DNA of 20,000 nucleotides from Rozella allomycis CSF55 (GCA_000442015.1 KE560678.1:49145-69144); one strand, 5' to 3'; positions 1-20,000 are shown, counted from the first letter of the stretch. The notes: generated by a model not told the origin, from the letters alone. Numbers and translations are program-made.

Positions 1-497
1 TGAAGTTGAGGCCGCTTACCTTCCTGGAGACAGAACATATCGGTATTTTGGAAGAGCAAAAGAGCTTCCTGGAGTGAAAGAACTATTCGAAGCTCAGAAG
101 CCCGTTGAATTTAGAAAGACGAGATTTGAAATGATAAAAGCGATAGATCCAGACTATTTCGGATACCGAGACGAAGATGATGGCGTTTTGTTACACATTG
201 AAAGCGAATTTGAAAAGAATGGTATTTAATACAACAAATGTTTAACTAGAACTTATAGACGCATTTGAATTATGGAAGATGAAAACGGACGATGGATTTA
301 GCGTTAAAAGCCGGGAAATCGAGGAGCAATTTGAAAAAGAGTTGAATGAAAAAATTAGTGCATGGAATTTCCCGCCATTAAACACCGAAGTATGTTTAAC
401 ACACGACGTTCCAATACCCACACAAAAAGATGTTGAAGCCTATTTACTGGAACTTAAGAAACAAGAAATTCTGGAGAAATACACAAGCAAATCTTAA
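1..497 (+). CDS. ISY1: Pre-mRNA splicing factor ISY1 (NTC/Prp19 complex), 5'-partial; exons <1-221 and 250-497
   Basis: Frame from nt 2 reads YRYFGRAKELPGVKELFE...IDPDYFGYRDEDDGVLL, the Isy1 family motifs. C-terminus has VPIPTQKDVEAYLLELKKQEILEKY. GT-AG intron 222-249 (28 nt); an in-frame alternative acceptor lies at 258. Confidence 0.92.
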
Positions 498-557
498 TGT
501 AGAAATAAAACTTTTTTTATCAAGTTAAAAATTTTGATAGGATATTTTCGGTTTTTT

Positions 558-2447
558 ATGCTGATTTTGTATGCCACACAAACAGGGACTGCCCAATATG
601 TCGCAGAGAGAATAGCGAAAGACGCATACAGAAAGGCTGTAGATTTTAGAATAAGGGGAATGGACGAGATAGATTACGTAAAAAAACCAGATTTGTTATC
701 TTCTAGCTAGATTTACCAAATGAGAAGGTTATAATATTTGTGTGCTCAACTACTGGAGATGGCGAAGCTCCTGAACAAATGGTTAATCTATGGAAATTCC
801 TGCTCAAACGTTCACTACCTGGAGATTTCTTGGCTGACGTTTCTTGCTCAGTTTTTGGTCTCGGGGATTCTTCATACGCAAAGTAGACAAATATTTATAT
901 TATATCTAGATTCAATTATCCAGCAAAAAAGCTATGGAAAAGGCTTATTCAGCTTGGCGCCAAAATGATTGGAGATAGAGGTGACGGTGACGACCAGCAC
1001 CCACTTGGGTAATATTAACTTAATCGAATTAATTATAGGGTAGATGGTGCTTTTTTACCTTGGATAAAATCAGTCTGGGAAGGTTTGCGTAACGTGTTAC
1101 AGTGTGATGTCGACAAGCAAGAAATTACTTCGCTGCCATCAAAGTATAAATTTATTGAAAAAGAAGAATATAACACAGATATACTAAAGGATAATTCTGC
1201 TTTCGTTGTTAAAAATGAAAGAATTACAACTTTCGATCACTTTCAAGATATTCGTTTGATTACGCTTGACGGGGTATTTGATTACAACCCGGGAGATGTT
1301 GCTGCATTAAAGCCCCAGAATTTACCTGAATATGTTGAAAAGTTACTTACAAGACTTGATTGGCTAAAATATGCTGACACATCTTTTGAATTGACAATTA
1401 ACAGACCTGACGGATCAAATCATTTTCATAGCAAATGCTGGACGTTAAGAAAACTTTTGACAGAGGAATTAGATTGTTATTCAATTCCAAGGAAATCGTT
1501 TTTTGAAATCTTGGCTCAATTCTCACACGATGAAATGTTTACCGAGAGATTAAATCACTTTATATCTCCCGAAGGTTTAGTAAAATATACTAAATATCTT
1601 CATTAGGATGATTTCTTAGACTACAATCAAAGAATGAAAAAGACTGTTTTAGAAGTACTCGAGGACTTTCCTGGTTTAAAATTCCCTTACGAATATGCTT
1701 TTGACGCGTTTCCGTTAATTAAGAGTCGATGTTTCTCCATATCAAGCTGCATTAAAAATAGAATAGAGTTGGTAGTGGGGATTGTAAATTACAAAACCAA
1801 AATGAAAGTCCCCAGAGAAGGATTGTGCACTCGATGGCTTGCAACTCTAACACGTAAAGGCAGTTAAATAAATTAACAAGAAAATACCAAAGTAAATTTA
1901 AGCATCAAGAAAGGGTCATTCACGTTCTCAAACGGAGTTTTACCAACGACTCCAATTATACTTTGCTGTGCGGGAACCGGAATAGCCCCGATGAGGTCTT
2001 TGATTTACTACCTACTGATTCATCAAGATTTTAAACAAGAAATTTATCTCTTTTTCGGATGCAGAAATAAGAACAAAGACGACATATTCTATAAAGAATT
2101 CAATGAGTTATCAAATTCTTATCCGAATTTTACATACTTTTATGCATATTCAAGAGATCAAGTAAATATTGTTCTTGACATTTAATAGCCAAACAAAGTT
2201 TACATTCAAAATATCCTGCTTCAGAATCAATCTTTGATTTGGTCTCTAATAAATCACAAAAAAGCTTCCGTTTACATTTCTGGGTATAGAAAATGTTTTA
2301 TTTTTAAATAGAAACACAAGCCTGCCAAAAGAAATTAAGAAATCTTTACTCGAGATTTTCACAAACAACTTAAAAAATGATATTATCGCAAATCAACAAA
2401 TAGAGCAGCTAATAAATGAAAGAAAGATTCAATGGGAAGCTTGGTAG
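558..2447 (+). CDS. NDOR1: NADPH-dependent diflavin oxidoreductase 1 (Tah18), 8 exons
   Basis: ATG at 558: MLILYATQTGTAQYVAE (FMN loop), CSTTGDGEAP, VFGLGDSSYAKFNYPAKKL, GDDQHPLGVDG, RCFSISS, GLCTRWL, GTGIAPMRS, LFFGCRNKNKD, AYSRDQPNKVYIQ, terminal WEAW*. GT-AG introns 678-706, 883-909, 1009-1038, 1580-1606, 1854-1880, 2162-2188, 2284-2311. Confidence 0.93.
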
Positions 2448-2509
2448 AAATAAAAATAAAGATATAGGTTTATTAGCTGGCACCTCTGCTAAGCCCCTGT
2501 ACCCTTGTC

Positions 2510-3943
2510 ATGAAAATTATTCTATTATTCACCACGTGGTTAGGCTTAATCGCTTCAAATGAGATAAGTTATGATTTTTCTCAAATCCCAAAATGTCACG
2601 AAAATGATTTCAAAATAATTGAATCATTTCAGGGTTCACGTCATTATCAGGTACTTCAGAAAGCTATTCATAATCCTTCCGGCAGCTTAGCCTTGATTAA
2701 ATATTATTCTTTAAGTAACTCAGAGGCATCAAAGAGACATGTAAAAGAATTTCAAAGAGAAATACGCGTCCATCACTATGTAAACTCACCCATGATTCAA
2801 AAGTTGATTTGCTATAATGAGATGATAACTCCTGGGAGAATGAATATTCTTTACTTTGCCGTTGAATATTTTGAAGGAGTTCTATTAGAAAAACAATTAC
2901 AGGCTGGACGTTTTACTATTAGTGAAACAATTGAACTCTTTTACAAAATTTTGGCTGGTGTTAAAAGCTTACACGCTAGCCTTTTGATCCATGGAAATCT
3001 CACACCTTCAAATATTTTGATTAAAGATGGTGTAATTAAGCTGATCAACTTTGAATATTCATCTGCGGAAAATGACTGGGATATAAATGATCACTCTGTA
3101 TCATCTCCTTACCATATTAAAGATCCTATCTTCACTCTGGCTACGGATCTGTACAGCATTGGCGTGATCATTTATGAAACCCACTTTTTGTCAACTGCTC
3201 CAGAAGCGTATTCTTTAGAAAGGAAAGCGAAAGAGAAGTACCCATCAAAAAGGGTTGAGAATGATGACAAACCATATTTTATGAATCAAAGAATTTTCAA
3301 TGCCCTCCTACCATTAATTCAAGTGAACTTGAAAAAGAGAATACTATTCCTTCTACCCAAAAATTCTGATGATTTAAACAAAAATTTGTTTAATGAAATT
3401 GATTGCAAGGCTATGTCAATGAATGAAGTTTTCAGCTCAAACGCCGTTCTCGATTTATTTGTTTCAAAGTATCCATATGAGCAGTTAAAGGAATACTTGG
3501 GATCAGTGACTGAAGAGCACATAAATCTAATTGCTACGAAACGGGGGAAAACTTTATATCTCGAGAATAGATTGTTGGATCTAAAACAAAAAGAAGAGAA
3601 ATTGAATTTAAAGTCGCGTGAAGTCGAATCTTCCTCTGAGACTCTTAAGGAAAAGATGCAAGCATATGAAACGGCTAAAAAGAACATTTTCAAGCAATTC
3701 TATGGACTTGAAGAAATGAAACTTGACGTTGTAAATGAAGCTAGTAGATTAGCCAGCTTAGTGGAAGAGAGAAATACGTTAGACGATTTTGTAGATAATT
3801 TGAAAATAGAAATCGGAAGAGCCAAGGAGGACTATTCAATGTTTATAATGGCTTTTGAGAAAAAAATGGAGGACCTGGAGGAACTTAAAATGATTGTGGA
3901 AAAGGCCGTGGAGAAAACTCATCAAAAATTGATTGATGTTTAA
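2510..3943 (+). CDS. Predicted secreted pseudokinase: signal peptide, degenerate protein kinase domain, C-terminal coiled coil
   Basis: 477-aa single ORF. N-terminus MKIILLFTTWLGLIAS. Kinase subdomains ALIK, FQREI, AVEYFEG, IHGNLTPSNILI, IKLINFE, TDLYSIGVIIYE. E/K-rich helical tail from about aa 350. Confidence 0.8.
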   Translation: MKIILLFTTWLGLIASNEISYDFSQIPKCHENDFKIIESFQGSRHYQVLQKAIHNPSGSLALIKYYSLSNSEASKRHVKEFQREIRVHHYVNSPMIQKLICYNEMITPGRMNILYFAVEYFEGVLLEKQLQAGRFTISETIELFYKILAGVKSLHASLLIHGNLTPSNILIKDGVIKLINFEYSSAENDWDINDHSVSSPYHIKDPIFTLATDLYSIGVIIYETHFLSTAPEAYSLERKAKEKYPSKRVENDDKPYFMNQRIFNALLPLIQVNLKKRILFLLPKNSDDLNKNLFNEIDCKAMSMNEVFSSNAVLDLFVSKYPYEQLKEYLGSVTEEHINLIATKRGKTLYLENRLLDLKQKEEKLNLKSREVESSSETLKEKMQAYETAKKNIFKQFYGLEEMKLDVVNEASRLASLVEERNTLDDFVDNLKIEIGRAKEDYSMFIMAFEKKMEDLEELKMIVEKAVEKTHQKLIDV

Positions 3944-4143
3944 AATGTAAAGTTAATAAAGACCTTTTCAATATGATAAATTTTTAGATCTAAAAGATAC
4001 GTGAAAATTACTGCATATCAGTTACTTAATGACTATTGAATTGTTGATGTTAAAAGGTCACAGACGGTGTGATTGAAAATTCAATCAGATCTATTTATAG
4101 GAATTTCAAGAATTTAAAAATGAGTACGCGACCACGCCACACG

Positions 4144-4764
4144 ATGAAAATTTCTACCACCTTCGTTGCTGCTTTACTCGCATCCTTTGCTGCTGCTGAA
4201 AGTACTCTTCTTCCTGAAACCATTTCTTTGAGAATATATGGAGGACCTGACTGTTCTGGTGTACCTATTGTCATCCTTCACGGCGAAAGTGCTGGTGCTC
4301 AGGTTGATTTACCAGACAACGCTTGTGTTGCTCCATCTGCTATTACTGATATCGTTTCCAAGTCTTTCAGTAACGAGTTTGCTGGTATTTTCGGACAAGA
4401 AGATGTTAAAAGCGCCCTTCAAGAGATTTCTAAATTTAGAATTGAAATTGTTCGCCAGAAACCATTGAAAGAAAGCGTAAGTAAACTTGTGAAATACACC
4501 CGTGTGATTTCCAAGGACAAGTCTATTCAAGTCCTTGTTCAAGACAACTTGTGCCTCTCCATCATGGGAACTTCTATGAAGATGTCTTGCGCTGAAGGCA
4601 AAATTACAACTCAACAATTTAACGTTGAAAACTGCAAAGGAAAAGCTGATGTAGTTGACAAGGATTCCATGAATATGTTGTCAACAATGTTTGGTTTCGA
4701 TGTGCAATGTGGATTCAACGTACACGGAGTTGCTGGAACCGCTTCTATTGAAGAGCTACCATAA
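4144..4764 (+). CDS. Predicted secreted 206-aa orphan protein with 6 Cys
   Basis: ATG at 4144 gives a typical signal peptide MKISTTFVAALLASFAAA. Uninterrupted ORF rich in GCT/GTT/TTC/AAC codons. No family recognised. Confidence 0.75.
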   Translation: MKISTTFVAALLASFAAAESTLLPETISLRIYGGPDCSGVPIVILHGESAGAQVDLPDNACVAPSAITDIVSKSFSNEFAGIFGQEDVKSALQEISKFRIEIVRQKPLKESVSKLVKYTRVISKDKSIQVLVQDNLCLSIMGTSMKMSCAEGKITTQQFNVENCKGKADVVDKDSMNMLSTMFGFDVQCGFNVHGVAGTASIEELP

Positions 4765-4802
4765 AAATTTATTTATAATGCTATTTAAGACTTTATTTTA
4801 CT

Positions 4803-6203
4803 TTATTTGAAAATATTTGAAAACATTTCTTTAGATTTTTTGTATCGTTTGTTTTCTAGCTCCAACAATTTCTTTCGCTCCCTTGCAATATCCGAAACAT
4901 AGTCATTTTTCACAACATTTGGACAACTTTCTAATAATTTTTCAAACGCATTTAGGTCGTCCTTGGCAGAATCCAAGTCTCGCCCTTGAGAAATATACGC
5001 TTGAGCTCTTCTAAATAATGCTTTGAGGTTAGACGGATCTTTTTTAAGAATAATATCTGCCTGAGAAATCGCTACTTTATAATCGCCCAATTTTAGTGCG
5101 CAAAGAATGTAGTTCAATCTGCAAGAGACTTGGAACCCCTCAATCCAATCTTTTGAAACACAAGAAGTCGGATCAGATTCTACTAAAGGATCAGACACAT
5201 TATCTTTTCCTCTGGCGATTTCTGAAAACGATGGAAGCATTAGCAGATTTTCAATGTAGTCTAACACGAGTGCAAATTTAATAGACGCTTCCTTAAATTT
5301 ACCCGACTTTACTAAAGAAACTCCTTCGTCTTTAAGCTGAGGTATCTTTTTAACTTTTTCAATAGCCGACAGTGTAAATGGGTGCTCATTCTCTTCAGTT
5401 ATAAATTCAAGACATTCAATAGTAAACTCCAAAGGCATCCCGTCCAATTGATAAAGCTCTGAATAAGTGTCCAAATCTTCCATGAATCCGGCAGCGCAAG
5501 TTTTCTTTCCACCATTCTTCTTGTCTCTTATCTTCCTTAAAGCGATTTCTAGTTGAATATATCCTTTAGACAGAGAATTAGACAATACGAATACAGATTT
5601 TTCTCCGACATTCATAGTTTTTACTATTTGTTCTAATGGCGGAAAGGAGAATGATTTATTCAAAAGGAGCTCGAAAGGTTCACCCGACTCTTTTGTGTCT
5701 GTTATTACATTTATCTTATTGCACACTGATAAAAAATCAGTTTGTTGCCCAGTTTTGCAAGATTCTCCCTCATGTGTTGGCTTGCAGGAGCTAGCATGAT
5801 GATTACAATTCACATGTGCATGGCAATCTTTAGCATCATGTTTCTTCTCATCATCAGACTCATGCTCATCATCACCTTCAGTAATTTTCCGTTCCTTATG
5901 TTTATTAATGTCCACCCCCATAAATTTACTTAACAACTCTGAAGGGCTATCTTCTGATATCCGTTCACATTCATTTTTGACTTTGTTACAAATATTTTCA
6001 AAATTTTCTTTATTATCTATGTGAAGGGGTATGGTAGAAACTCGCAGATGCATCTTCACTTTAGATGCTGACCATTTGGTGTCGCAAATCTTTCCAGGTT
6101 TGAAGATTAATTTGTACATGTCGTTGTTTATTTTGGAAAAGTCTGTTAAATCTAAAGTTGGATGGGATAATTTTGAAATCCAGTCTGTTTGTGTTGAACT
6201 CAT
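4803..6203 (-). CDS. AIP: AIP/AIPL1-like co-chaperone (FKBP-like domain plus TPR repeats) with a long insertion
   Basis: KLIFKPG, SKVKMHLRV, VITDTKESGEPFELLLNKSFSFPPLEQIVKTMNVGEKSVF, PLEFTIECL and EKVKKIPQLKDEG match the AIP layout. TPR segments RLNYILCALKLGDY and NLKALFRRAQAY. Confidence 0.8.
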   Translation of the reverse strand: MSSTQTDWISKLSHPTLDLTDFSKINNDMYKLIFKPGKICDTKWSASKVKMHLRVSTIPLHIDNKENFENICNKVKNECERISEDSPSELLSKFMGVDINKHKERKITEGDDEHESDDEKKHDAKDCHAHVNCNHHASSCKPTHEGESCKTGQQTDFLSVCNKINVITDTKESGEPFELLLNKSFSFPPLEQIVKTMNVGEKSVFVLSNSLSKGYIQLEIALRKIRDKKNGGKKTCAAGFMEDLDTYSELYQLDGMPLEFTIECLEFITEENEHPFTLSAIEKVKKIPQLKDEGVSLVKSGKFKEASIKFALVLDYIENLLMLPSFSEIARGKDNVSDPLVESDPTSCVSKDWIEGFQVSCRLNYILCALKLGDYKVAISQADIILKKDPSNLKALFRRAQAYISQGRDLDSAKDDLNAFEKLLESCPNVVKNDYVSDIARERKKLLELENKRYKKSKEMFSNIFK

Positions 6204-6224
6204 TTAGAATTTTTCGGAAATCAT

Positions 6225-8635
6225 ATGAATGTGTTTCACGAAGATGTAGTGTGTTTAAAGGATAAGATTGATGTAAAAGGTGTTGTTTCTGATACTATAT
6301 TTGAAAATCAATCTATTCCTAAAGATTGTGTTGAAGTGTCATGGCATCAAGAACCTTATCCCGTGGAAATTATCGATAAGAAAGATTTGATAGTCACTAA
6401 TAGATATCCTTTTTGTCTTATATTATTTTAAGATTGATTTTCCTTAATTTCAAATCGTTTTTACCGAGTGACATTGTTATGGATCCAAACGATCCTAGGA
6501 AGCTGCAGGGACTTGTAGTAAATACTAGAAGTGTATTGCATGTTCAAAACTGTTTTGATGATTCAAAGAAAGAATATGTTGTTGGAGATGATATGGTAGA
6601 TATTGAAAAGGAATTTCTTGTTCAGGAAGGATCGTGGGTCAAATATAATGACTGGATAGGAATTGTTATTGAAGTATGATAATGGTAAATCTAATAATTT
6701 AGGTGAAAACTGACTTTTATATTGCATTCAGCAATGGTGCAGTTTGCATACCAAAAGACTCAACAAAGTGTAGGCCGGCAAATGAAATAGACGAAGACTC
6801 TTATTGGTATGAAAGACATTTACCAGGACAAGTTATGATTTCAAAAAGATCTAATTTTGAAAAGGGAAAGTGGATTAAAGGATCATTTAAGAGTGCATCA
6901 CATCATTGGAAAGGGGTACTAATGAAGACGGCCCATAAGAGTGTTTCGGTGATATGGAAAACAGTTAATCCAATTTTGCCCAATGATTCTGAAATTCTAT
7001 CGTCTCCAAAAACTTTGTATGGCAATGAATTGAATAATTTGGAGGTATTTGACACATTTTTATTATCTAAAATAAACATTGGATCAGTTGTGAAACTAAA
7101 GAAAGAAGCACTTGAAAACTTTAAAGATTTACCGATTGCCTGTAGCGATGAAAATTTCATGAACTATTGGATGGTTGTCGATCAAAAGACAACCGTAGAT
7201 GTGCATTGGCAGGATGGGAAAATAGAAAATGAAATTTCTTCAGAGAAAATAATTCCAATTTTAGAGGCTGGTGAAACTGATTTGAGTGCCACTGAATTTG
7301 TTAAAAAGAATGAATCTGATAAATTAGGCATTTTGCAAAGTTTTGATCCTAATGAAAGAACTTGTACAGTAGGGTGGATCTCGAGTAACAGTGGAATGGT
7401 TGAAGGTGAATTGGAAGAATTAAGTATTTACGATGTTAAGGCAGACCCACAAGTTTCATTTTACATTATGAACATTGTGTTAAAAATAGATTCGATCCAA
7501 GACCCGAATAGCTGGGCTGGTGAAATAAGAAATATTTTGCCGAATGGATTAATTGAAGTTAGATGGACGACGGGGGTTACAGAAAATATTCCTTTCAAAC
7601 ATTTACATTTTGTTTATGATAGTTCTCAAGTTGATGACGAAGATCTTGAAGATATTTGTTATCCCCATGTAGATGACGATTGGATGACAATTGCAAGTGA
7701 CGAGAATTCGGAAATAGATCAACAAGAAGAAAAAATATCTTTTGTAGATCTAGATCTAACTAAAAAGTTTAATATTTTGAGTATTAATGGAGATAACAAA
7801 GATTCTTTTAGCATTGATGAAAATGCACCATTAGATCATCTATTTTTACACAAAACAATTCAATTTGCATCAAACGCAGCCAATGTGGCCATAAGGAAAG
7901 ATTTTAAACTTTTAAAGGAATTACCTGAAAACATTTACGTTACAACTTTTGAAGATAGAATAGATCTATTTAGGTCTATCATAATTGGATCCAAAGGTAC
8001 CGTTTATGAATACGCAATGTTTCTATTTGATATTCAGCTTTCATCTAAACATCCATTTGAACCTCCATCCGCGTATTACCATTGTTGGACTGATGGGCTA
8101 GGAAAATTAAATCCAAATCTCTATGAAAATGGAAATAGTAATTTTCATTTTTATTTTTTATCTAGTTTGTTTATCTCTACTTGGAACATGGGAAGGATTT
8201 GAAAAGGAAACTTGGTCTTCAAATTCTTCCATTTACCAATTATTACTTTCTCTTCAAGCTCTTGTTCTCGTCAGAGAACCTTACTACAATGAAGCGGGCT
8301 ACACAAAATATCAGGGAACTGATGAAGGTCAAGTAGCTTCCATTCGATACTTGGAAAACGCTTTTCTGGGTTCCGTTAAATCAATTTTACATATCTTAAA
8401 TCATCCACCATCTAATTATGAGGCTCTGGTTAAATTCTACTATATAGATTGCGGAAATTTAGAAAAAGTCATTCAAAGGTGCGAAGCATTAGTACATTCC
8501 TCACAAGAACACGAAGAAAACATTTGTTCTTGGTATGATTCCACCAATCAAGATCAATTCCCTCTTAAAAGAATTTCAAAAGGTGGCGCGAAATTGTTAA
8601 CCCCCATCATAGAAACCTTGAAATCTTTTATTTAA
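6225..8635 (+). CDS. UBE2O: E2/E3 hybrid ubiquitin-conjugating enzyme UBE2O-like; exons 6225-6403, 6454-6673, 6703-8137, 8166-8635
   Basis: N-terminal conserved regions (NRSFLPSDIV after splicing, GSWVKYNDWIGIV, TTVDVHWQDG). UBC domain EDRIDLFRSIIIG..GTVYE, LNPNLYENGNICLSLLGTW (active Cys restored by intron 8138-8165), QALVLVREPYYNEAG. Intron 6674-6702 is GT-AG; intron 1 is non-canonical. Confidence 0.9.
6404..6453 (+). other. Putative U12-type (minor spliceosome) intron with AT-AA termini, 50 nt
   Basis: Starts ATATCCTTT (U12 donor consensus). TTTTCCTTAAT at 6438-6448 matches the U12 branch consensus. No nearby GT-AG pair joins the two frames. Splicing 6403 to 6454 gives DLIVTNRSFLPSDIV. 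Confidence 0.7.
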
Positions 8636-8822
8636 TAAAATAACAGTTTCAATTTTTTTGACAACATAGTTTATAGTACATGCAAATCTAAGCAAACTCT
8701 ATACACTCAACTCCAACAATTGATAACTTTGAGATTTATTATAGTTAAAGATTTTTATTCCAAAAATTGAAGCACTTGTTGACCCTTCCCAGTTGCCAAG
8801 CTTTTGAAAAATACAAAACACA

Positions 8823-10010
8823 ATGGCAGCAACAGAGGAAAGGTTAGCATTCATCGCCGAGTGGTTTGATAAAAGTGCTGATTTAACAAGAGTTTTTCAT
8901 TTTCTCTATTTTCCAACAGATCAGTCCATTGAACTCGTAAGTATAGTTCCAACAAATGTTAGGTGGACGACAAGACAAAGAAAATATTCTTAAAGAGAGC
9001 GCCATATCCAAACATCACTATCGATCAGGTATATCTGGGCGCTACAATCACCGTCTATTCAAGACCAATGACTTTGGTAAATTTTGGAGACGAACGGACG
9101 AGGAAAGTGTTCAAAACAGAATCATTGCAGTATAAAATATCTATATTATTGACAATTAGTGAATTCTTGGTGATAGCCGCATCCAAAGATAATAAGAAAT
9201 GTTTGGATGAAATTTACTCAATATGTCACACTAACAATACCCAAATCATTTCCATAGATCTAGTCAGCGCGTACATTCTCCCACAAAATTTGAGAGAAAA
9301 ATTGCCTAGAGGAAATGTCATAGTAGCTAAATTAAAAGGGGATCCAAGAAATGTTTGTGAGAATGCAAACATAGTACTGCCAGACAGAGAACAATGTGAA
9401 AAAGTAATTCCTATTTATCTTATTTAAATGATAATTAATGAACTTGCTTCAGCAAATTTTGATCTTCACGAGAATGCAAGTTTGTGCATCATCAAACCGC
9501 ATTCCATGATTCAAGGTATTCATATACGTTGATTAAAATATGGTCGGTGCCATGAAATAATTAAGGAAATCTCCGATGATTTCAATATATTGGCTATAAA
9601 AACTGTTCGATTGACTTTAGCAGAGGCCGAAGAATTTATGGAAGTTTATCAAAATGTTCTTCCTGAATATCATGTAAAAATTATGAAATTGCTTTAGTAG
9701 CTTTTAATAAACGAGCTCATCGCTGGAAATTGTGTGGCAATGTAGGTTTCTAGTCTGCAATTAATATAGTCAAGCACGTCCGTTAAATGGTGCTAATGCA
9801 GTGACATCATTACGAGAATATGCTGGTCCTTATGACCCTGAAATCGCCAAGCTAATAAAACCAGATTCTCTACGCGCTAGATTTGGAAACGATAAAATTC
9901 AAAACGCAATTCATTGTACAGACTTGATTGATGATGCCCCGCTTGAGGTAAGTTGATGCGTCGAGTATTTATAGATTCAATATATATTTCAAATAATAAA
10001 GGCCCAATAA
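8823..10010 (+). CDS. NME7: Nucleoside diphosphate kinase 7 (DM10 domain, degenerate NDK-A, NDK-B); axonemal/centrosomal protein, 8 exons
   Basis: DM10: ERLAFIAEWFD..FHFLYFPTDQSIEL|VDDKTKKIFLKR..VYLGATITVYSR. NDK-B: SLCIIKPH, AEEFMEVY, LREYAGPYDPEIAKLIKPDSLRARFG..IQNAIHCTDL..APLEIQYIF. Introns 8937-8962, 9130-9159 (in-frame, stop-free), 9404-9430 (GT-TG), 9516-9542 (GT-TG), 9674-9700, 9742-9769, 9948-9974. Confidence 0.9.
9404..9430 (+). other. Putative 27-nt GT-TG intron (NME7 intron 3)
   Basis: gtaattcctatttatcttatttaaatg. Removes an in-frame TAA. The first downstream AG (9451-9452) is out of frame. Confidence 0.55.
9516..9542 (+). other. Putative 27-nt GT-TG intron (NME7 intron 4)
   Basis: gtattcatatacgttgattaaaatatg. 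Removes an in-frame TGA and restores KPHSMIQGRCHEII. The next AG (9564-9565) is out of frame. Confidence 0.7.
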
Positions 10011-10022
10011 TCTGTGTATTTT

Positions 10023-11411
10023 TTATTTAAATAATGATTTTGTTGATCCTGATAGCTTTCGATTCAATCTATCCCAATGAAACGTGCAATTTTCAAAACT
10101 TAATTCTTCTAAACATGAAATGGAAAGTTCAAAAATATCACGATCATCTTGTGAAGCGAATTTCGCAGATTTTAACAAGTTTCTCTGAATCAGTACTACC
10201 TTTTTGAGTCTTTCTTTGTCAACATAATCTTTTTCTTTGTGGATGAAATCATTAACACTTGACTTGACAATGTAAATAACTCAAATTACTTGTATATCGC
10301 CGACCGTAGCTTGAATAGTTCCTTTAATTCGGTCACTCCTTTGTTTTAAGTTATTTTTAATGTTAATCCAGTCCCACACCTGCATGCTTTCGTTTTTCTT
10401 CAATTGGATATCCAGTAAACTTGGAATTTGTTCCAAGGGTGTTAGTTGTAATTGCTTTGAGCGATTGATGAGAGAATATATATCATCGATATCAGGATAT
10501 TCCATCAAAATCTTTATTCCATCAATCCCTTGTTCCAAAACTATTAGTCAAAAAGCAATACCTTACGCCTTTCCTTGACGTTAAATAACATCGTTAGACA
10601 AATGTACGGAAGAATTTCAAAATTTGATACAAAAATTTCATTCCATAAAGGAATAATCTGATCTAATCGAAACTCCCTCGAAAAAAGTAACCTAATCCAA
10701 CGACAATTGCAATAACAAAACCAATCTTACATGAAGTAAACGCTAGGATCTAATTTTAGTGTTTCATGAATGTATTCATAATATTCTTCATCTATTTTTC
10801 GTAACAGGTGCTCATGCACTTTTTCTGACAACGTTGATAATCCTGCCCCCTTTAATCAATTTTGAGAATCAAACATTACAAAATAGAATATCTTGACTTT
10901 TTCTATTAATTTCTCATAAATCTTATAAACATTATATGTGGAGGGATAGTTTGTTTGTTCTGAAAGCCAAAAGACCACCGCAAGTAGTTCATGCATTCCC
11001 TGGCGGTATTCAGTTCCCGTTAGTTTGTAATAACAGTAAAGTAATTTGGTCAATGATTCAGCAACTCTTCTATCTCTAAAATAGGGATTGTCAGGAAAAC
11101 TTGTATTATATTGCAGTTTTAAACATACATTCTGTCAACGTCCTTTTCAATTAGTTTTACAGTTTCTTCTTCCTTAAAATGTAAAGACCACGAACTCTTT
11201 GACATAAAATTAATTATTCTACTCCCTTCTTTAATGATAATGGATGATCTTGCTCCGTGTTTTCTTCTAATTTAATTTGTGAACTGATTTGAGTGAAAAA
11301 AACATTTTCTGGATCCTCAATAAGAATGTAATTGAAAATTTTCTGTTATAAAAGTGAGAACAATATTCTTACTGCCCAACCTTCAAAATAGCCTTGATAA
11401 AAAGTGGACAT
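10023..11411 (-). CDS. TBC1D5: TBC-domain Rab GTPase-activating protein, TBC1D5-like, 8 exons
   Basis: DHPLS...SSWSLHF, catalytic IEKDVDRIFP and YRQGMHELLA, YFIRWIRLLFSREF, LMEYP. Minus-strand introns 11372-11343, 11222-11197, 11128-11100, 10879-10850, 10730-10704 (GT-TG), 10566-10541, 10289-10263. The start codon is less certain. Confidence 0.82.
10704..10730 (-). other. Putative 27-nt GT-TG intron (TBC gene intron 5)
   Basis: Minus strand gtaagattggttttgttattgcaattg. Splicing gives AT|T CGT TGG ATT AGG = IRWIRLLFSREF, the conserved TBC1D5-family motif. Confidence 0.72.
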
Positions 11412-11474
11412 GAAATTTGATAAATAGGAAATTGGAGACTGAATCACCTATGAAAAAAGAATTGACATTTGTAA

Positions 11475-12768
11475 CTATTTTAATTTATTTGCTAGATTAT
11501 TTGGAGTCCATGGGCCCAACGAATCTTTGGCATAAAAGTCCATAGGGTAAACTGACTGCCATTCTATTTGATCCAAACATACATTCATTTCAAACGGAGT
11601 TAATAATGGCTTAGGATACGAATATCCCCAGTCAATCGATAATCTGGGACATGCGACTTGAACAAAAGTGTCAATGTCTTTAAATTGGGTGATTTTGCTG
11701 GCAAAAATTTCAGACATTAATATTCTGGTATATTTCTTTCCACAATCTTTTAACTTTTTCTCGATCGTTTCTAGGACCCTCGGATTACCTTGGCGTCCTA
11801 AAGTGCCCAAGATCAAACCCACAGACTTTGCCTGCCTCGCCTTAGTTATGGCTTCTTTTCTTAGTTTATGCATTTCCTCAATTTCATAATATTCTCTTGT
11901 CATTGTTTTCCCGTAGGGATCGTATTTGTATGCACACTTGGATGGATTGGCAATCATAATTGCCTCAAGATGGAACCTACCATCCCCCAGATATACAATA
12001 GCGTCAGTATCTTTGTCTAGCTTTGGTGCTGTGCAACCAAGAATTTCTCCTGGTGAAAGTGGTTTAATTTGCGGAATAAATATTTTTGGAAAGTCACTTA
12101 AAGCATTCTTTGCTGCATGAAGCGAAGTTAAAAACTGCACAGTGGACACAAAACAAATCTTTTGATCTGGATGAAAAAATGTCCTAATATGTTCGACAAA
12201 ATGTGAAATGTCAAACTTAATATCTACGAAAACGTACATAGTTTTTATCTTTGTAACATCAATAGGAACTATTTAAATTTTAATGTAAAGAAATACCTAA
12301 ACATGAGTGCCCATAATGAACCATAAAGTCACATCCTAAAGCAGTTGCTGTAAAATCATCAATGCAACAAGCACCATATGTGACATCACCCATAATAACA
12401 GTTTCCACTTGAGCAAATCTTAATCATTGTTTCATTGAATATGTACTTTTCCAATATATCAGATATTATGCAGGCATACATTAATAATCCTTCAGGAAAC
12501 TGAAGTGCCACTCTTTTAGACTGATTCTTTTTGCACATCCATATAGTTTTATGAATTTCAAAATTATAGTTTTTTGGCATCTATATTTTATTAAAGAATC
12601 TCAATCTCTTACCTGGGCGATCCAGTCATTCAGCTCTTTGTTTTCCAGAATGTCATCTGGAATCTGATTGAGTTTTCTAAAAGTTTTAACATTTCCTAAT
12701 ATTTAGATAATAATAAGAATACTTTTTGGATCATTCTTTTTCTGAACCAGAGCTGTTTCCTCCAACAT
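11475..12768 (-). CDS. DPH1: Diphthamide biosynthesis protein 1, 5 exons
   Basis: [107 protein letters not shown] introns 12722-12696, 12612-12581, 12446-12419, 12296-12269. Confidence 0.96.
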
Positions 12769-12903
12769 TTGTCAACTTAGCCACTAAAACTTTTCGAATT
12801 CAATTTGATGGCAATGATATATTTATATGAGAATGAAAATAATTAATAAAATTCGTATATGCATTACTTGTGAAAAGCGAATCCTGAAATTTACAATTTT
12901 TCA

Positions 12904-13596
12904 ATGAATGCTACCCTGCTTCAACAAGCGTGGTTCTTTTGCCACTCCACGTTCATCTCACTATATGTTGTCTCCTTAATATCCCCTGTTTTTGGATTAA
13001 GTAGCCAGTCTATGCAACTATTTGCTACTCTTTTTGCAACATTAGGATATATGATAGTACTGTACCAAACACATATGGTAACACCTTTTAACAAGACAAC
13101 AATAATGAAGAATGAAAACACACTATATTTTATCCTTCTTTTGAATATGTTAATGACAAGAACTAATTTCGGTAGCATAGTTTTTCCATTAATGGTTTAT
13201 TCAATATTTCACATTGCAGGATATCTTATTAGCGGTCCATACGCTATCAGTATGAATATGAAATCTCGCCTTCAAAATTTGGTCAGTATCCAGAGCCCAA
13301 TAATAATAATGGCTGCAAAACTAGAGGTCGTTTCAATTGCCTCCTTACTTGTGACATATCTTAGTGGCAAGACTCCATTGTATTTTTTCATCTTTTACGT
13401 GTGGTTTATCATTAACAGATACTTTTCGTCTGCAATAATGAAGACTGCATTCTCAGAGTTTCGAGTGGGTGCCAATCAAATAGCTTGCAGTTCGAAATGC
13501 CCAAAAATATTATCGAATCTAATACAATCTGGAATCAACGCTTTATCTCGATTTGGAACAACTTTGACGCATGTATCTGCAAACAAAAGTCAATGA
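12904..13596 (+). CDS. TMEM33: TMEM33/Pom33/Per33 family ER/nuclear-envelope membrane protein
   Basis: Multi-pass hydrophobic protein with AWFFCH, NENTLYF, PLMVYSIFHIAGY, FIINRY..S, and KCPKIL near the C-terminus. Confidence 0.8.
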   Translation: MNATLLQQAWFFCHSTFISLYVVSLISPVFGLSSQSMQLFATLFATLGYMIVLYQTHMVTPFNKTTIMKNENTLYFILLLNMLMTRTNFGSIVFPLMVYSIFHIAGYLISGPYAISMNMKSRLQNLVSIQSPIIIMAAKLEVVSIASLLVTYLSGKTPLYFFIFYVWFIINRYFSSAIMKTAFSEFRVGANQIACSSKCPKILSNLIQSGINALSRFGTTLTHVSANKSQ

Positions 13597-13700
13597 ACAA
13601 TAATAAATAAGTATAACTTTCAACTTGTCACACTTTCATTTTTATATTGCTTTATGACAGATCCATAAGAAGAAATTACCCAAAAGAAATTTCCAGAATA

Positions 13701-15429
13701 ATGAAACTCGACGCTTGTTTGGCTGCATTAACTGTTTTATCTTCGATCAATGTAATTGTATATGTTTAAATAAGAAAGGCTGAGGCGTTATTTGTTGAAA
13801 AGTTTGAATCAAAAAGCTTGTTGGGAGACAAATGGGTACCATCAGAAGCAAAGAAAGATTCCGGTGATGTTTTGGCGTATGATGGTCAATGGGAAATAGA
13901 GGAGGCTTCTGTGTTGAAAGCATTTGACGATGATTTTGGGCTTGTTGTAAAATCTCCAGCCAGACTTCATGGTATAACAAGAAAGTTTGACAAAGCTATC
14001 CAAATTGAAGATGAAAAGCCTTTCGTTGTTCAATATGAAGTGAAATTACAAAAAAGTCTTGAATGTGGAGGGGCTTATTTGAAACTGTTGACTGCAGGAG
14101 AAGAAGAATTCAATCCTACTCAGTTCCATGACAAAACACCTTATACAATAATGTTTGGACCTGACAAGTGCGGTTCTTCTAATAAAGTAATGAGACTAAA
14201 AAGAATTGAAAGGTTCATTTTATTTTTCGTCACAAGAACCCTGTGACTGGCCAAATTGAAGAAAAGGCTCTAAATAATCCACCGACTGCTAAAATCACAG
14301 AAAAATCTGTTCTTTATACTTTAATTGTTAAACCTGACAATAAATTTGAAATTCGCATTGACAGTGAAAAAGTTAGGGAAGGGTCTCTCCTTGAAGACTT
14401 TACACCATCAGTGATACCACCTAAAGAGATTGAAGACCCTAATGACACAAAGCCAGAAGATTGGGATGAAAGAGAAAAGTAAGTTTGACAGCAAGTCTAT
14501 TTTTAGAATTCCAGATGAAAGTGCAGTGAAACCAGAAGACTGGGATGAAGAAGCACCAAAGGAAATTGAAGATATTAATGATACAAAGCCTTCAGATTGG
14601 CTTGACGATGAACCTTTATTGATTCCTGATGTCGATGCAGCAAAGCCCGATGATTGGAATGAAGAAGAAGATGGAAAATGGGAGGCTCCATTAGTTGAAA
14701 ATCCTAAATGTAATTCTGGAAAATGTGGCGTTTGGCAACGAAGAAAAATCTCAAACCCTAATTACAGGGGTAAATGGAAAAGACCCTTGATAAGCAATCC
14801 AAATTACAAAGGAAAATGGTCACCAAAGAAAATACCAAATCCTGAATATTTTGAAGACGATAAAATATATAAATTCACCCCAATGGTAACATTCATGCAT
14901 GTAATTGAAATAGACTGCTGTTGGTTTTGAACTTTGGACCATGCAGAATGATATTCTATTTGACAACATTTTCATTTCAGATTCAATTCAAGATGCAGAA
15001 AAATTTTCTGACGAAACTTTTAAATTGAAATCTAAAGAAGAAGCTTTGAAAGAACCAAAGGAAGAAGAATCAACTGTGGAAGATAAACAAGAAAGTTCGT
15101 TTGAAGATTCTTCTTCATTTGGACCTTACCTGGATGCTTTAAAGAACATCGATATCTCTAAAATTGTTGAATTGTTGAAAACTGAGCCAATGACGTTTAT
15201 TCCATTCTTTGCTGCAGTTTTCTTTCCAATTCTTATTGTTTATTTCGTAAAATGGGCCATTTCAAACCCAGTTTCAGATTCAAAAGAGAAAATAGAAAGT
15301 GACGATGGATTTCAAGAAGAACAAAATGATGAAGTTGAAACAAACGAAATTAAAACTCAAGAAGAAAAGGAAGACAATTCTCTCAATCAAGTTAACGCCC
15401 AATCTGATGAATCAACTGATAATGAATAA
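13701..15429 (+). CDS. CANX: Calnexin, 5 exons
   Basis: Signal peptide [54 protein letters not shown]-domain repeats KPEDWDE and GKWxxPxIxNPxY, [16 protein letters not shown], one TM helix and an acidic tail. GT-AG introns 13752-13778, 14187-14212, 14479-14506, 14886-14913. Confidence 0.96.
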
Positions 15430-15516
15430 AATATTTAATTTGCTTAAAGTATTCAACTTTGATGGAACCTTCACTCTAAGCCTATCACACTTGTAATTTC
15501 AAAATCATAAATTTAT

Positions 15517-16103
15517 TTACAAAACTTTTTGCGATTCTCTTTGCTCAAGATCATGATATGCCAACACAAAATTACTGAACTCTAAAAGAATGTTCGCCGC
15601 CCCATCTTCCTCTTTCGAAAAATCTCCGACTGATGACGGTGGACTCAATGGAATTGGTATTTGGTGACTCTTGATATGTTCTTTCAAATTGTCCGACCTC
15701 GAAAACGCCTTGAAACATTCTTTGCATTCAAATGGCTTTTCCCCAGAATGGATTCGTAAATGTCGCTTCAAATGTCCAGATCTCGAAAATACTCTATGAC
15801 AATCAGGCTCTGAACACGCAAAAACACGCTTAACTGGTATGGTTGAATCTGGCTGTTTCTGTTTTCTAAAATGTGTTCGGATATGTCTCTTTAATTCATC
15901 TGACCTAGAAAATCTCTTCTGACATTCTTCATATTCGCAAACGTACGGTTTCTCACCTAGTTTAGATTATACCCCACACTCCTACCTGTGTGCACTCGGA
16001 TGTGTCTTGTTAAATGTTCCAAGCGGTTAAAAGCTTTTCCACATCCTTCGTAACTGCATAAATATGGTCGAGATGGTTTTGCTCGCTTCGTTTCTTCGCA
16101 CAT
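15517..16103 (-). CDS. C2H2 zinc-finger transcription factor with four fingers; first pair CreA/Mig1-like; exons 16103-15986 and 15956-15517
   Basis: [57 protein letters not shown] ... [57 protein letters not shown] intron 15985-15957 (29 nt) lies in the TGEKP linker. Confidence 0.88.
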
Positions 16104-16485
16104 CGGTTACCTCTTATCGGGTGGCTGTTACCCCATGAGGATATCGCCCCAAGTCCTCGTGATTTTGGGCGATAACGAATTTCTAAAATTTCTTTGTATT
16201 GCTATCACCTTGTTAAGATACATTTCTCTTTCTTTATCTCTATCTCTTCATAATTCCTCGTTATTACGAGTAAAGCAATTTCAGGTTTTGTTTTGGCTAA
16301 GGGTACCGTCACCAAGTCGTTGGAAAGTTCTAGATTCCACTTTACATCCCGAAAGCTATATAATTAAATCAATTAGATTACTTAAAATTTATTATTTTTG
16401 CACGATATGCACGATACGCCGAATATAACAATAGATCATTTCTAGTCAATTTATTAATGACCGAAATCTTGTTTATTAAAAAAGG

Positions 16486-16550
16486 TATTTGAATGAGTTT
16501 CCTGATCATGCTGAAAGNTATTCGAATGAGTTTCCTGATCATGCTGAAAG
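16486..16550. repeat. 32-bp direct repeat (1 mismatch) flanking a single N; probable scaffold-join artefact
   Basis: tatt(t/c)gaatgagtttcctgatcatgctgaaag at 16486-16517 and 16519-16550, separated only by N at 16518. Confidence 0.85.
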
Positions 16551-16791
16551 TTGAAGGATGCAAACAGCGTCGAATTTTAGTCACCCTTTTCAAGAGGCAA
16601 CTATGAATACCAATGCGAACCTTTAAAGGCGTTAAAGATTGAATGCAAAACAACTGCGAGAATTCATTCATTATGGCCAGAAAGGCCGGAATGTGAATTA
16701 GGAGTTCCAAGAATTGGTTAAAATTACTAAATAAAGTTGTTTAGTGATAAAATGTTTCTATTAATTTGGCTTTCTAAATTAGGCAGCACGC

Positions 16792-18336
16792 ATGCGTCTA
16801 TTCGTCTTCCTCTCAATTATAAAAGGTATGTTTGCAGGCAGTTTGGTTATATTAGTGCTGTCTTCTAATCCAATTAATGTCATTTTGATGATTTCCGACG
16901 GTTTCGGACCGTCGAGTGAAACATTTGGAAGAACAATTTACCAGTTTAAAAATAACCTTCCTTTTGATCATCCGACGCCACTAGATGAAATTCTAGTGGG
17001 AACTTCGAGAACAAGATCTAGTTCTTCCCTTGTTACAGACTCTGCTGCTGGGGCTACTGCTTTTTCATGTGGATTGAAATCATATAATGGTGCCATTGGA
17101 GGTAAAAATACACGCAAAGTTTTTCAGTTAATCCAAATAAGAAACCTTGCGGTACTATTTTCGAAGCTGCAAAAGCAAAGGGGCTTAAAACAGGCCTTGT
17201 AGCAACTTCCAGGATCACCCATGCGACCCCAGCATCTTTTAGCGCGCATGTAGTTCACCGCGATATGGAAAACTTGATAGCAGAATATCAAGTAGGAGAT
17301 TATATTTTGGGTCCCCAAATTGACTTAATGTTTGGCGGTGGACGTTGCCATTTCGTGTCCAACATAACCTTTTCTAGTTGTCGAAATGATGATAGAAACT
17401 TGCTTAAAGAGGCATCTGATAAAGGTTACCATGTTATCAATAACAAGTATCAAATGATGACAAGTAAATTGTTAAAGTATGTTTTGTTATAAGCAAGTCA
17501 ATTACCTGTTATTGGACTCTTCAATAATGATCATATGTCTTTTGAAATCGATAGAATACCTGATCAAGAACCTTCGCTAAGTGAAATGACTAAAAAGGCG
17601 TTAGATCTACTCGCGGTTGATTCTGAAAATGGATTTATTTTAATGGTTGAAGGGAGTAGAATCGGTAGCACATGTTTTGCCCTCTTATTAGATATGGCGG
17701 CTCACAATAACGATCCAGTAGGCCACGCATCCGACATTTTAGAGTATTACGAGACAGTGAAACTGGCGAAAATCTTTGTCGAAAACCATCCAAGCACTTT
17801 ACTTATATCAGTATATGTCTTATTTTCTTCATTACAAGGTATCCGATCATGAAACTGGTGGGTTGTCTTTGGCCAAGCAATTAGACCCAGACAAGTACCC
17901 CATTTACAAATGGCTACCGAAACCAATTCTTAAAGCTAAAAACTCAATAGAATATCTTGCCTTAAGATTAGTACTTTTAAAAAATGAAAACTTTGACGAT
18001 TTATTTGAATACATTGACAAAATTATCCTACGCCATGGATTAATGATAGATGAACCACTGCTTAATGACATAAATCAAATAGTCTCTGCTACAAGAACAG
18101 GAAATGTATATAAGATTATGGCAGAGTTGTCTAAAATAATAAGTACATCTGCCCAGATTGGCTGGTCTACCCATGGACACAGTGCCGTGGATGTAAATTT
18201 GTACGCAACTGGATATGAATCGCACAAATTGAAGGGTAACATTGAAAATACAGCGATCGGGAACTTTATTGCAGACTTGTTAAATTTGGATCTTCAAAAT
18301 ATAACAAGTATATTAAATAAGCATGATACAGTGTAA
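16792..18336 (+). CDS. PHO8: Alkaline phosphatase (Pho8/PhoA family), probably 6 exons
   Basis: NVILMISDGFG, VTDSAAGATAF (catalytic Ser), TSRITHATPASF, MFGGG, MVEGSRIDMAAHNND, SDHETGG, THGHSAVDV. GT-AG introns 16826-16855 (in-frame, tentative), 17102-17127, 17464-17493, 17665-17691, 17811-17838. Confidence 0.93.
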
Positions 18337-18438
18337 TTATTATTCCATGAATTAAGTAGACCTTCAGTGAAAGACGTTATCCAAGTGAGATGTAAAAGAA
18401 TAAAGTACCATTCATAAACATAAATTTATTTCGTAAAC

Positions 18439-19866
18439 TCATGCATTTTCATTTTCTTGATTCACTATGTTCACTATGTACCCGGGTGTTTTTCCTTTAG
18501 TTTCTCGACACATGAAATACACAAATACAGATGCCACAATTAGAACACCCATGTACGGCAGAAAAAATAATCTTCCAAGGCCACCGACCATTGATTGAAA
18601 TGTTATCGCAACAATAAAATTGGAGACCCAATTCATTGTCACAGATACAGATCCTGCAGCGGGCACTGCATTTGGGGGAAATATATCAGAAGTGATAATC
18701 CAAGGGATGCAACCTAAGCCAATAGCGAAAAACGCAATAAAAAAGTATATTGCAATCACAAAAGGAACATTAATCGAAAAATTTAAAAAGATGACAATTA
18801 GGATACTACACAGCGCCTGCCCTATTGTGCCAACCAATAGCAAAGAGCGTCTTCCAAATTTTTCAACGAAATAAACAGTACTTAGAGTAAATAGAAAATT
18901 TGTCAATCCTAATCCCATTGAGACATATGTTGCTATATCAGAATTGCCAGCCTGTTGGAAAATAATTGTCGAAAAAAAGAAAACACCGTTAATCCCGGAA
19001 AATTGGAGAAACATTTGCAGCAAAACGTTAATAACAAGAGATCTATATGCGATTTTCGTCCTCAATAGTTGAGGTATACTAACATGAGTGAATGACCTTG
19101 ATTCTTCACTTAACTTCTTAAATTCTTCTTCGTTAAACGGAGAATTGAAGGTTTTATAAGACTCTAAGGCATAATTGGTATCGTTTTGTTTAATATAAAA
19201 TGAAGGACAATCATAGCAGAAGATTAAACCGACGAACTGAATTGTCGTTGTGATTACTCCAAATCCAAATAGCAAACGCCAGTTATTAGCGTCAAACCAA
19301 GGAATACCAAGAACCTGAGCCATAAAAATTCCAAAGACTAAGCTAATCGGATGAAGGGAACCTATAGCACCCCTAATACGGGCAGGTGCAATTTCACCCA
19401 GATATCCCGGCGCCGCTACAGTCGACAATCCAGAGGCGATTCCAATCAAAAATCTTCCAACAATAACAAGTTCGACAATATTAGCTAAACCCATACATAA
19501 AAATCCAGATAAGAAAAATGCATCCGCCAACATGAGCGTTTTTCTTCGACCAAACCACCCTATCAATAATCCAGACGATATGGCCGATATTATTCCTCCT
19601 ATGCTAAACATCGAAACGACAAGATCCCATTGTGACGCAGACGATGGCACGCATGCCAACAAAAGGCCTGATGAAGTATCCTGGCAGTGTAAAAATGTAT
19701 CAATTGGAGCATTAACAACAGATAGATTGTATCCATAGTTAAACGATGCTAATACTATCACAAAAGATGTAAAATAGATTTTTGATGAGAAATTCCGATT
19801 GCGGGGTATTGTTGTTGACATTTCCGAAAAAGTGTAGCAACGATTTTCATCATTATAGTGCACCAT
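18439..19866 (-). CDS. MFS sugar porter (GLUT/SLC2-like hexose transporter)
   Basis: SFNYGYNLSVVN, FGRRKTL, GEIAPARIRGAIG, LQFSGINGVFFFST, VEKFGRRSLLL, IPWIITSDIFP, ETKGKT; about 12 TM segments. The true start may be the second Met (MSTTIP). Confidence 0.92.
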   Translation of the reverse strand: MVHYNDENRCYTFSEMSTTIPRNRNFSSKIYFTSFVIVLASFNYGYNLSVVNAPIDTFLHCQDTSSGLLLACVPSSASQWDLVVSMFSIGGIISAISSGLLIGWFGRRKTLMLADAFFLSGFLCMGLANIVELVIVGRFLIGIASGLSTVAAPGYLGEIAPARIRGAIGSLHPISLVFGIFMAQVLGIPWFDANNWRLLFGFGVITTTIQFVGLIFCYDCPSFYIKQNDTNYALESYKTFNSPFNEEEFKKLSEESRSFTHVSIPQLLRTKIAYRSLVINVLLQMFLQFSGINGVFFFSTIIFQQAGNSDIATYVSMGLGLTNFLFTLSTVYFVEKFGRRSLLLVGTIGQALCSILIVIFLNFSINVPFVIAIYFFIAFFAIGLGCIPWIITSDIFPPNAVPAAGSVSVTMNWVSNFIVAITFQSMVGGLGRLFFLPYMGVLIVASVFVYFMCRETKGKTPGYIVNIVNQENENA

Positions 19867-19942
19867 ATGGTTACAATTTACAGGTTAAATAAATGAAAAA
19901 TTTAATATTCAATTAAAAGAATCCAGTTTATCGGTATACATC

Positions 19943-20000
19943 ATGTTCTTTGAAACGTTAAACCCAGGGAAGCCTTCGAAGGAAGAAATAGACATCCTCA
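19943..20000 (+). CDS. Possible 5' end of the next gene (MFFETLNPGKPSKEEIDIL...), 3'-partial
   Basis: ATG 76 bp from the divergent transporter start, open to the window end. Spacing is typical of this window; no family recognisable. Confidence 0.35.
   Translation, partial: MFFETLNPGKPSKEEIDIL

Follow-up and report, generated by a model that had tools for sequence, protein, structure and literature searches.

In the fungal parasite Rozella allomycis, a UBE2O-like gene probably contains a U12-type intron of the AT-AA subtype, at positions 6404-6453 of the DNA analyzed here. All positions refer to the window, that is, the whole 20,000-nt stretch of the CSF55 assembly under study, which is AT-rich (GC 0.31-0.38), and are counted from its first letter. 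We favor a U12-type reading because the donor is unlike those of the ordinary intron candidates nearby, both of the expected motifs fit the consensus, and AT-AA is the most frequent non-canonical subtype among the minor introns of plants and animals (PMC10639083). Moreover, the reading frame breaks at this point with no in-frame GT-AG or GC-AG intron to mend it, while a pair of U12 motifs lies exactly there, which lends further weight to a U12-type intron. The proposed gene structure is as follows.

6225-6403, plus strand: exon 1, with ATG at 6225-6227, 59 codons and the AG of a split Arg codon; outside the public protein
6404-6453, plus strand: candidate U12-type AT-AA intron, 50 nt, phase 2, placed by protein homology at the junction
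6404-6412, plus strand: 5′ splice-site motif ATATCCTTT, a match to the U12-type consensus
6440-6448, plus strand: branch-site motif TTCCTTAAT, of U12-type consensus, with the presumed branch A at 6446 or 6447
6454-6673, plus strand: exon 2, which holds the annotated start ATG (6479-6481)
6674-6702, plus strand: ordinary GT-AG intron in phase 0, 29 nt, implied by the public protein
6703-8137, plus strand: exon 3, encoding tSH3-B, SH3-B, SH3-C and the beginning of the UBC domain
8138-8165, plus strand: ordinary GT-AG intron, 28 nt, just 5′ of the catalytic-Cys motif, implied by the public protein
8166-8635, plus strand: exon 4, encoding the remaining UBC domain and the C-terminal region, with stop TAA at 8633-8635

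In the mechanism that we propose, the 5′ motif ATATCCTTT would base-pair with U11 and U6atac, and TTCCTTAAT with U12, leaving A6446 or A6447 bulged as the branch nucleotide. A6453 would then serve in the second splicing step, only 6-7 nt downstream of the branch, and removal of the intron would join AG (6402-6403) to A (6454) as an Arg codon, restoring an N-terminal extension of 68 residues. The motifs, their placement, the coding nature of exon 1 and the homology-favored junction are shown here, whereas we infer that the intron is excised, that a minor spliceosome does so, which A acts as the branch, and that Rozella has minor snRNAs and proteins.

The UBE2O-like gene and its N-terminus

An earlier note on this DNA had named the gene UBE2O, an identity borne out by Pfam. 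Specifically, the UBE2O-specific SH3-like domains tSH3-B_UBE2O, SH3-B_UBE2O and SH3-C_UBE2O, as well as the UBC core (UQ_con), each exceeded the respective cut-off (PF23046, 40.2 bits with a cut-off of 22.4; PF23043, 32 with 22; PF23044, 21.1 with 21; PF00179, 36.7 with 27), and we therefore refer to the product as a UBE2O-like E2. A protein search that returned seven proteins at E ≤ 0.001 among 6561 candidates showed exon 3 to be 100% identical to a public 699-residue hypothetical protein from R. allomycis CSF55 (P0001), in which the catalytic Cys motif of the UBC core is present. The N-terminus of this protein, MDPNDPRK, corresponds to the ATG at 6479-6481, located 3′ of the candidate intron. 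The 68 conserved N-terminal residues that it lacks make up the N-terminal half of the first SH3-like domain, and we attribute their omission to a first intron that is not GT-AG. In its domain order, which runs from SH3-like domains at the N-terminus to a UBC core containing the catalytic Cys motif, the Rozella gene resembles the UBE2O/PHO2-type E2-E3 hybrids, but its re-modelled product is compact, at 767 residues versus roughly 900-1300 in many relatives.

We examined the coding status of exon 1 and the position of the junction using relatives recovered by searching the public protein against 1.84 billion representative proteins, from which the best 150 of 5842 sequences at E ≤ 0.001 were used. 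Residues 1-140 of the AT-AA model aligned with the extreme N-termini of these relatives, and the junction was crossed without a gap in all nine of the alignments shown in full. In 24 of 25 relatives no residue was inserted directly after the conserved R, while the remaining one had a single extra P. Because the members of this 25-relative profile had been selected using the AT-AA model itself, the test was repeated with a profile of 14 relatives, for which the sole selection criterion was similarity to the annotated part of the protein, downstream of the intron.

Using the 14-relative profile, the AT-AA model scored 89.7 bits, while the 29-nt AT-AG model scored 68.7, the 65-nt AT-AG model 69.8, and the protein from the annotated start 51.4. 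The corresponding scores with the 25-relative profile were 81.9, 69.0, 56.4 and 37.0 bits. On these values the junction 6403/6454 is favored by about 13-25 bits over the two AT-AG alternatives, and no other junction matches the relatives gap-free through the conserved DR-SF..GD motif. Protein homology thus favors the AT-AA end that the earlier note had put forward, at 6453, for its gap-free fit to the UBE2O motif.

Exon 1 alone scored 21.4 bits with the 14-relative profile, well over the best shuffled sequence (8.1 bits; 300 shuffles, of which 282 were scored), which argues that it is coding. Judged by this homology, the upstream ORF at 6225-6403 is a genuine coding exon 1. Its similarity was detected by profile only, as phmmer returned no match for exon 1 alone among 155 relatives at E ≤ 10, and neither exon 1 nor exon 2 alone retrieved anything relevant from Pfam, even at E ≤ 10.

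Immediately upstream, on the minus strand, lies a divergent TPR/FKBP-like (AIP-like) gene whose first ATG (6203-6201) is 21 nt from the UBE2O ATG at 6225. With the two start codons this close, the transcripts must overlap unless the neighbor uses a later Met. The other genes in the window are of housekeeping types and comprise a FAD-binding reductase fragment, a protein kinase, an NDK7-like gene, a TBC RabGAP, a diphthamide synthesis gene, TMEM33/Pom33, calreticulin, a C2H2 zinc finger, an alkaline phosphatase and a sugar transporter. There were no spliceosomal components among the genes of the window (1-20000); proteins specific to the minor spliceosome are 65K/RNPC3, 35K, 31K/ZCRB1, 48K, 25K, 20K and 59K.

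Splice signals at the frame break

The frame that opens at ATG 6225 reaches AAT AG at 6403, enters ATATCCTTTTT (6404-6414) and stops at 6429-6431. The downstream reading frame is open from 6404, and the two frames overlap across 6404-6431. At the start of the overlap, ATATCCTTT agrees with the U12-type 5′ splice-site pattern (/[AG]TATCCTT). Further downstream, TTTTCCTTAAT at 6438-6448 contains within it the 9-nt branch-site motif, which agrees with the pattern TTCCTTRAY near the 3′ end of the intron. Both are the signals given as the U12-type consensus in PMC3584512 and PMC7367187. The terminal dinucleotides, AT-AA as placed by the protein junction, are those of a known minor-intron subtype, and replacing A6404 with G would leave the GT-AG form of the U12 consensus, GTATCCTT.

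We then enumerated introns from GT, GC and AT donors at 6380-6431 and AG, AC, AA and AT acceptors up to 6499. No GT-AG or GC-AG intron that was both in frame and stop-free occurred in this enumeration (6380-6499). From the donor at 6404, the biologically sensible in-frame ends were 6432 (AT-AG, 29 nt), 6453 (AT-AA, 50 nt) and 6468 (AT-AG, 65 nt). The second of these yields the in-frame product TNR/SFLPSD, while an end at 6432 adds LIFLNFK and an end at 6468 deletes RSFLP. The sole AC nearby, at 6463-6464, is out of frame (AGC GAG TGA) and leads to a stop after two codons. The mRNA junction implied by the favored end is a single one, which can be written in three registers, namely 6404-6453 (AT..AA), 6405-6454 and 6406-6455 (AT..AT). 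What the earlier note had read from this region therefore stands: exon 1 ends in AAT AG, both motifs lie where it placed them and agree with the U11/U12-type signals that it named, no GT-AG pair joins the frames (the same being true of GC-AG), the nearby AC is out of frame, and the two AT-AG alternatives, with their insertion and deletion, are in frame.

Ordinary introns in the window provided a local comparison. On both strands we collected 28 ORF-joining GTA..AG mini-intron candidates of 26-30 nt, individually unverified and with GTA used as a selection criterion (examples are 222-249, 1580-1606, 6674-6702, 8138-8165, 10541-10566 and 12269-12296). Six were 26 nt in length, six 27 nt, seven 28 nt, five 29 nt and four 30 nt, so that the 50-nt candidate is nearly twice as long. 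Following their 5′ GTA, the next base was mostly A. A C was present at +5 in 1/28 and at +6 in 2/28 of these candidates, and since C is rare at both positions the ATATCC donor is unlike the ordinary ones. The nearest yTrAy was 4-18 nt from the 3′ end and was absent in 5/28, but in such AT-rich sequence the motif calls are ambiguous, rendering the branch spacing of the ordinary candidates unusable as evidence. Together with PMC6349667, in which Rozella introns are about 30 nt, the size range of the 28 candidates supports a genome with tiny introns.

We also considered how often the two motifs would meet by chance. The window contained two copies of RTATCCTT (1.62 expected) and two of TTCCTTAAY (0.81 expected), so that neither motif stands out by itself in such AT-rich DNA, whereas the pair is rare. 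A second-order Markov model of the window, used to generate 8 Mb, produced 409 donors and 146 branch motifs but two pairs, a pair being defined as a donor and a branch motif on one strand, 5-90 nt apart; the simulation put the chance rate of a pair at ~0.0032 per 20-kb window. The window contains a single motif pair, sited exactly at the frame break. The Rozella genome is roughly 12 Mb in size. A few chance pairs are expected genome-wide, such that it is the placement at the frame break that gives this pair its significance.

Other occurrences of the motifs were noted. A second ATATCCTT, at 5559-5566 on the plus strand, is antisense to the TPR/FKBP-like gene, and a second TTCCTTAAT, at 9560-9568 on the minus strand, is antisense to the NDK7-like gene. 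As each is antisense to the local gene and without its partner motif, both look like chance matches. Additionally, a relaxed pair, ATATCTTT ... TTTCTTAAT, spans 132 nt of the minus strand at ~2334-2465, a little upstream of the protein-kinase gene.

Branch spacing and alternative readings

With A6446 or A6447 as the branch, the inferred 3′ end at 6453 is 7 or 6 nt away. This is shorter than the ~10-15 nt typical of U12-type introns, spacing being a usual property of the class and not part of its definition. Major-type introns in Giardia and Trichomonas use spacings of about 7 nt. The compressed geometry at the Rozella locus would follow solely from the homology-favored junction, and it plausibly fits a genome in which whole introns are 26-30 nt. 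Either a Rozella minor spliceosome works at compressed spacing, or some of the splicing here is unproductive.

Measured from the same branch, the AC ending at 6464 is 17-18 nt away but out of frame, and the AG ending at 6468 is 21-22 nt away but 20 bits lower in score. Both distances are nearer to the usual U12 spacing (PMC3584512), which speaks for a U12-type intron with a 3′ site other than 6453. Such an intron would end either at AG 6468 (65 nt, in frame) or at AC 6464 (61 nt, frameshifted and stopped early, for example in unproductive or error-prone splicing). Moreover, U12-type 3′ site selection is described as error-prone in PMC3584512, and the 6468 model is free of stops. However, an end at 6468 would lose the conserved R-S-F/L..P, with a cost of 20 bits in the 14-relative profile and 25.5 bits in the 25-relative profile, and would require AT-AG, which is described as a disfavored combination (PMC3584512), while an end at 6464 encounters its stop after two codons. 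We consider another 3′ site unlikely, although it survives best among the alternatives to a U12-type AT-AA intron ending at 6453.

Next in order is the possibility that the public model is right and transcription or translation starts downstream (ATG 6479), the upstream ORF being a decaying remnant or a uORF and the motifs being chance matches or relics of a lost minor spliceosome. The annotated protein does begin at this ATG, just 21 nt separate the upstream ATG from the divergent neighbor, some chance motif pairs, a few in number, are expected in a genome this large, and Microsporidia appear to be without a minor spliceosome in the account of PMC2396436. Yet exon 1 is an intact ORF of 59 codons with significant similarity to the N-termini of relatives, and the annotated protein would open partway through a conserved domain (51.4 versus 89.7 bits). 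The agreement of both motifs with the consensus would also be unexpected for unselected relics. We accordingly give a downstream start a low probability.

The length typical of the window would be retained if the interval 6404-6432 were an ordinary 29-nt major-type intron with A in place of G as its first base, whether because the assembly is in error, because the strain carries a variant, or because non-canonical splicing is tolerated. This intron falls within the 26-30 nt range of the local candidates and is in frame and stop-free. It would nevertheless insert the seven residues LIFLNFK into a motif that is uninterrupted in 24/25 relatives, score 13-21 bits lower in the profiles, and reduce both U12 motifs to coincidence. 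In major splicing, the second step is blocked by G1A donors. Should the true base be G, the donor would still be of U12 type (GTATCCTT), with C at the +5 and +6 positions where C is rare in ordinary donors here. A major-type intron at this position is, in our view, very improbable.

Finally, readings without splicing, in which a −1 ribosomal frameshift, a translational bypass or an assembly indel joins or separates the frames, could draw on the overlap at 6404-6431 and on an in-frame 47-nt hop between the AAT codons at 6399-6401 and 6446-6448, but were rejected on the protein alignment and retain almost no credence, given that a canonical slippery heptamer is absent, every such route adds or alters residues in the conserved motif or drops the near-invariant R, the extra 50 bases resemble an intron and are rich in T, and nuclear bypassing is not known.

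The U12-type AT-AA intron that we prefer has points against it as well. These are the 6-7 nt spacing, the out-of-frame AC at 6463-6464, an intron position that is unshared (see below), Microsporidia that appear to lack the minor spliceosome (PMC2396436), the 21-nt gap to the neighbor's start, the annotated start at 6479, and an exon 1 that alone had no phmmer match among 155 relatives.

Comparison with relatives and known minor-intron systems

Conservation of the intron position in other UBE2O genes, which the earlier note had suggested as a check, did not emerge. Among 80 metagenomic loci with UBE2O relatives, the N-terminal region was present in 40, of which one (L062) was uninformative. In all 39 informative loci a single HSP crossed the position equivalent to the junction (36 ungapped and three with a one-residue insertion), such that 0/39 had an intron at the Rozella position. 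A shared position would be supportive of a U12-type intron and is not defining for one, but its absence from the 39 loci means that there is no comparative support for an ancient minor intron. Searches for close relatives in metagenomes with the public protein as query gave 10 pattern matches, of which 0 were confirmed.

Two of the metagenomic loci had introns or motifs of their own. In L016, a UBE2O relative contains a GT-AG intron of ~190 nt (1355-1549), which lies near the Rozella intron position but does not coincide with it, as 4-5 codons separate it from the conserved DR motif downstream. On the minus strand of a eukaryotic metagenomic contig (L029, ~5012-5260 in the reversed locus), GTATCCTTT is followed ~215 nt later by TCCTTAAC and then CAG; this motif pair may represent a U12-type GT-AG intron of an unrelated organism.

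The candidate shares with U12-type introns of the AT-AC class the consensus motifs ATATCCTTT and TTCCTTAAT, a branch site near the 3′ end, and a phase other than 0. The last of these agrees with the known tendency of minor introns to avoid phase 0 (PMC10639083), the candidate being in phase 2. It differs from known U12-type introns in its 6-7 nt spacing, versus an optimum of 11-13 nt between branch and 3′ splice site (PMC3584512), in its length of only 50 nt, and in coming from the Rozellomycota/Cryptomycota lineage, for which we found no report. Gain of minor introns is held to be rare (PMC10639083).

A genome of very small introns that also contains minor-type introns is found in Blastocystis sp. 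subtype 1, for which the shortest mean minor-intron length has been reported, at just under 42 bp (median 39; PMC10639083). Blastocystis, however, has hundreds of such introns, mostly AT-AC and mostly in phase 0, and all four minor snRNAs have been found, whereas Rozella has one AT-AA candidate in phase 2. Among the fungi, early-diverging lineages outside the Dikarya (Mucoromycota, Chytridiomycota, Blastocladiomycota including Allomyces, and Rhizophagus) keep U12-type snRNAs and introns (PMC2396436, PMC10639083). Specifically, minor snRNAs were described in Zygomycota and in Chytridiomycota including Allomyces and are seemingly absent in Ascomycota and Microsporidia (PMC2396436), while a large survey, from which introns <30 bp were excluded, recorded minor introns in several non-Dikarya fungi (PMC10639083). 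Unlike those early-diverging fungi, Rozella is the sister lineage to the Microsporidia, a group from which the system appears to have been lost (PMC2396436).

Our literature search found no report of a minor spliceosome, minor introns or U12-type splicing in Rozella. Cryptomycota and Rozellomycota go unmentioned in the main text of PMC10639083, the supplementary species lists of which may record Rozella, and PMC5701793, on Paramicrosporidium, contained no text on introns or spliceosomes. As the candidate intron is unannotated, surveys based on annotation could not have seen it. An Rfam search of the 20-kb window matched no family, and one metatranscriptome with the same species label had no coverage anywhere in the window.

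A retained minor spliceosome with compressed geometry, as the earlier note inferred, may operate in Rozella. To the fuller interpretation, that Rozella keeps a working minor spliceosome adapted to miniature introns, which carries out the second step 6-7 nt from the branch in a 50-nt AT-AA intron, we assign about even chances. If confirmed, the intron would extend U12-type splicing to the Rozellomycota, and the loss of minor splicing in Microsporidia would fall after their split from the rozellids. The candidate would exemplify a minor intron in which the distance from branch to 3′ splice site is far below the accepted optimum, in a genome with ordinary intron candidates of 26-30 nt, and, at about half the usual optimal spacing, it would allow the limits on the minimum geometry of the U12-type active site to be studied in a natural setting. 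For the gene itself, the public model is corrected by the addition of 68 N-terminal residues of a conserved domain. More broadly, annotation pipelines restricted to GT-AG introns hide those introns that are needed to detect a minor spliceosome, and surveys built on such annotation would therefore miss it.
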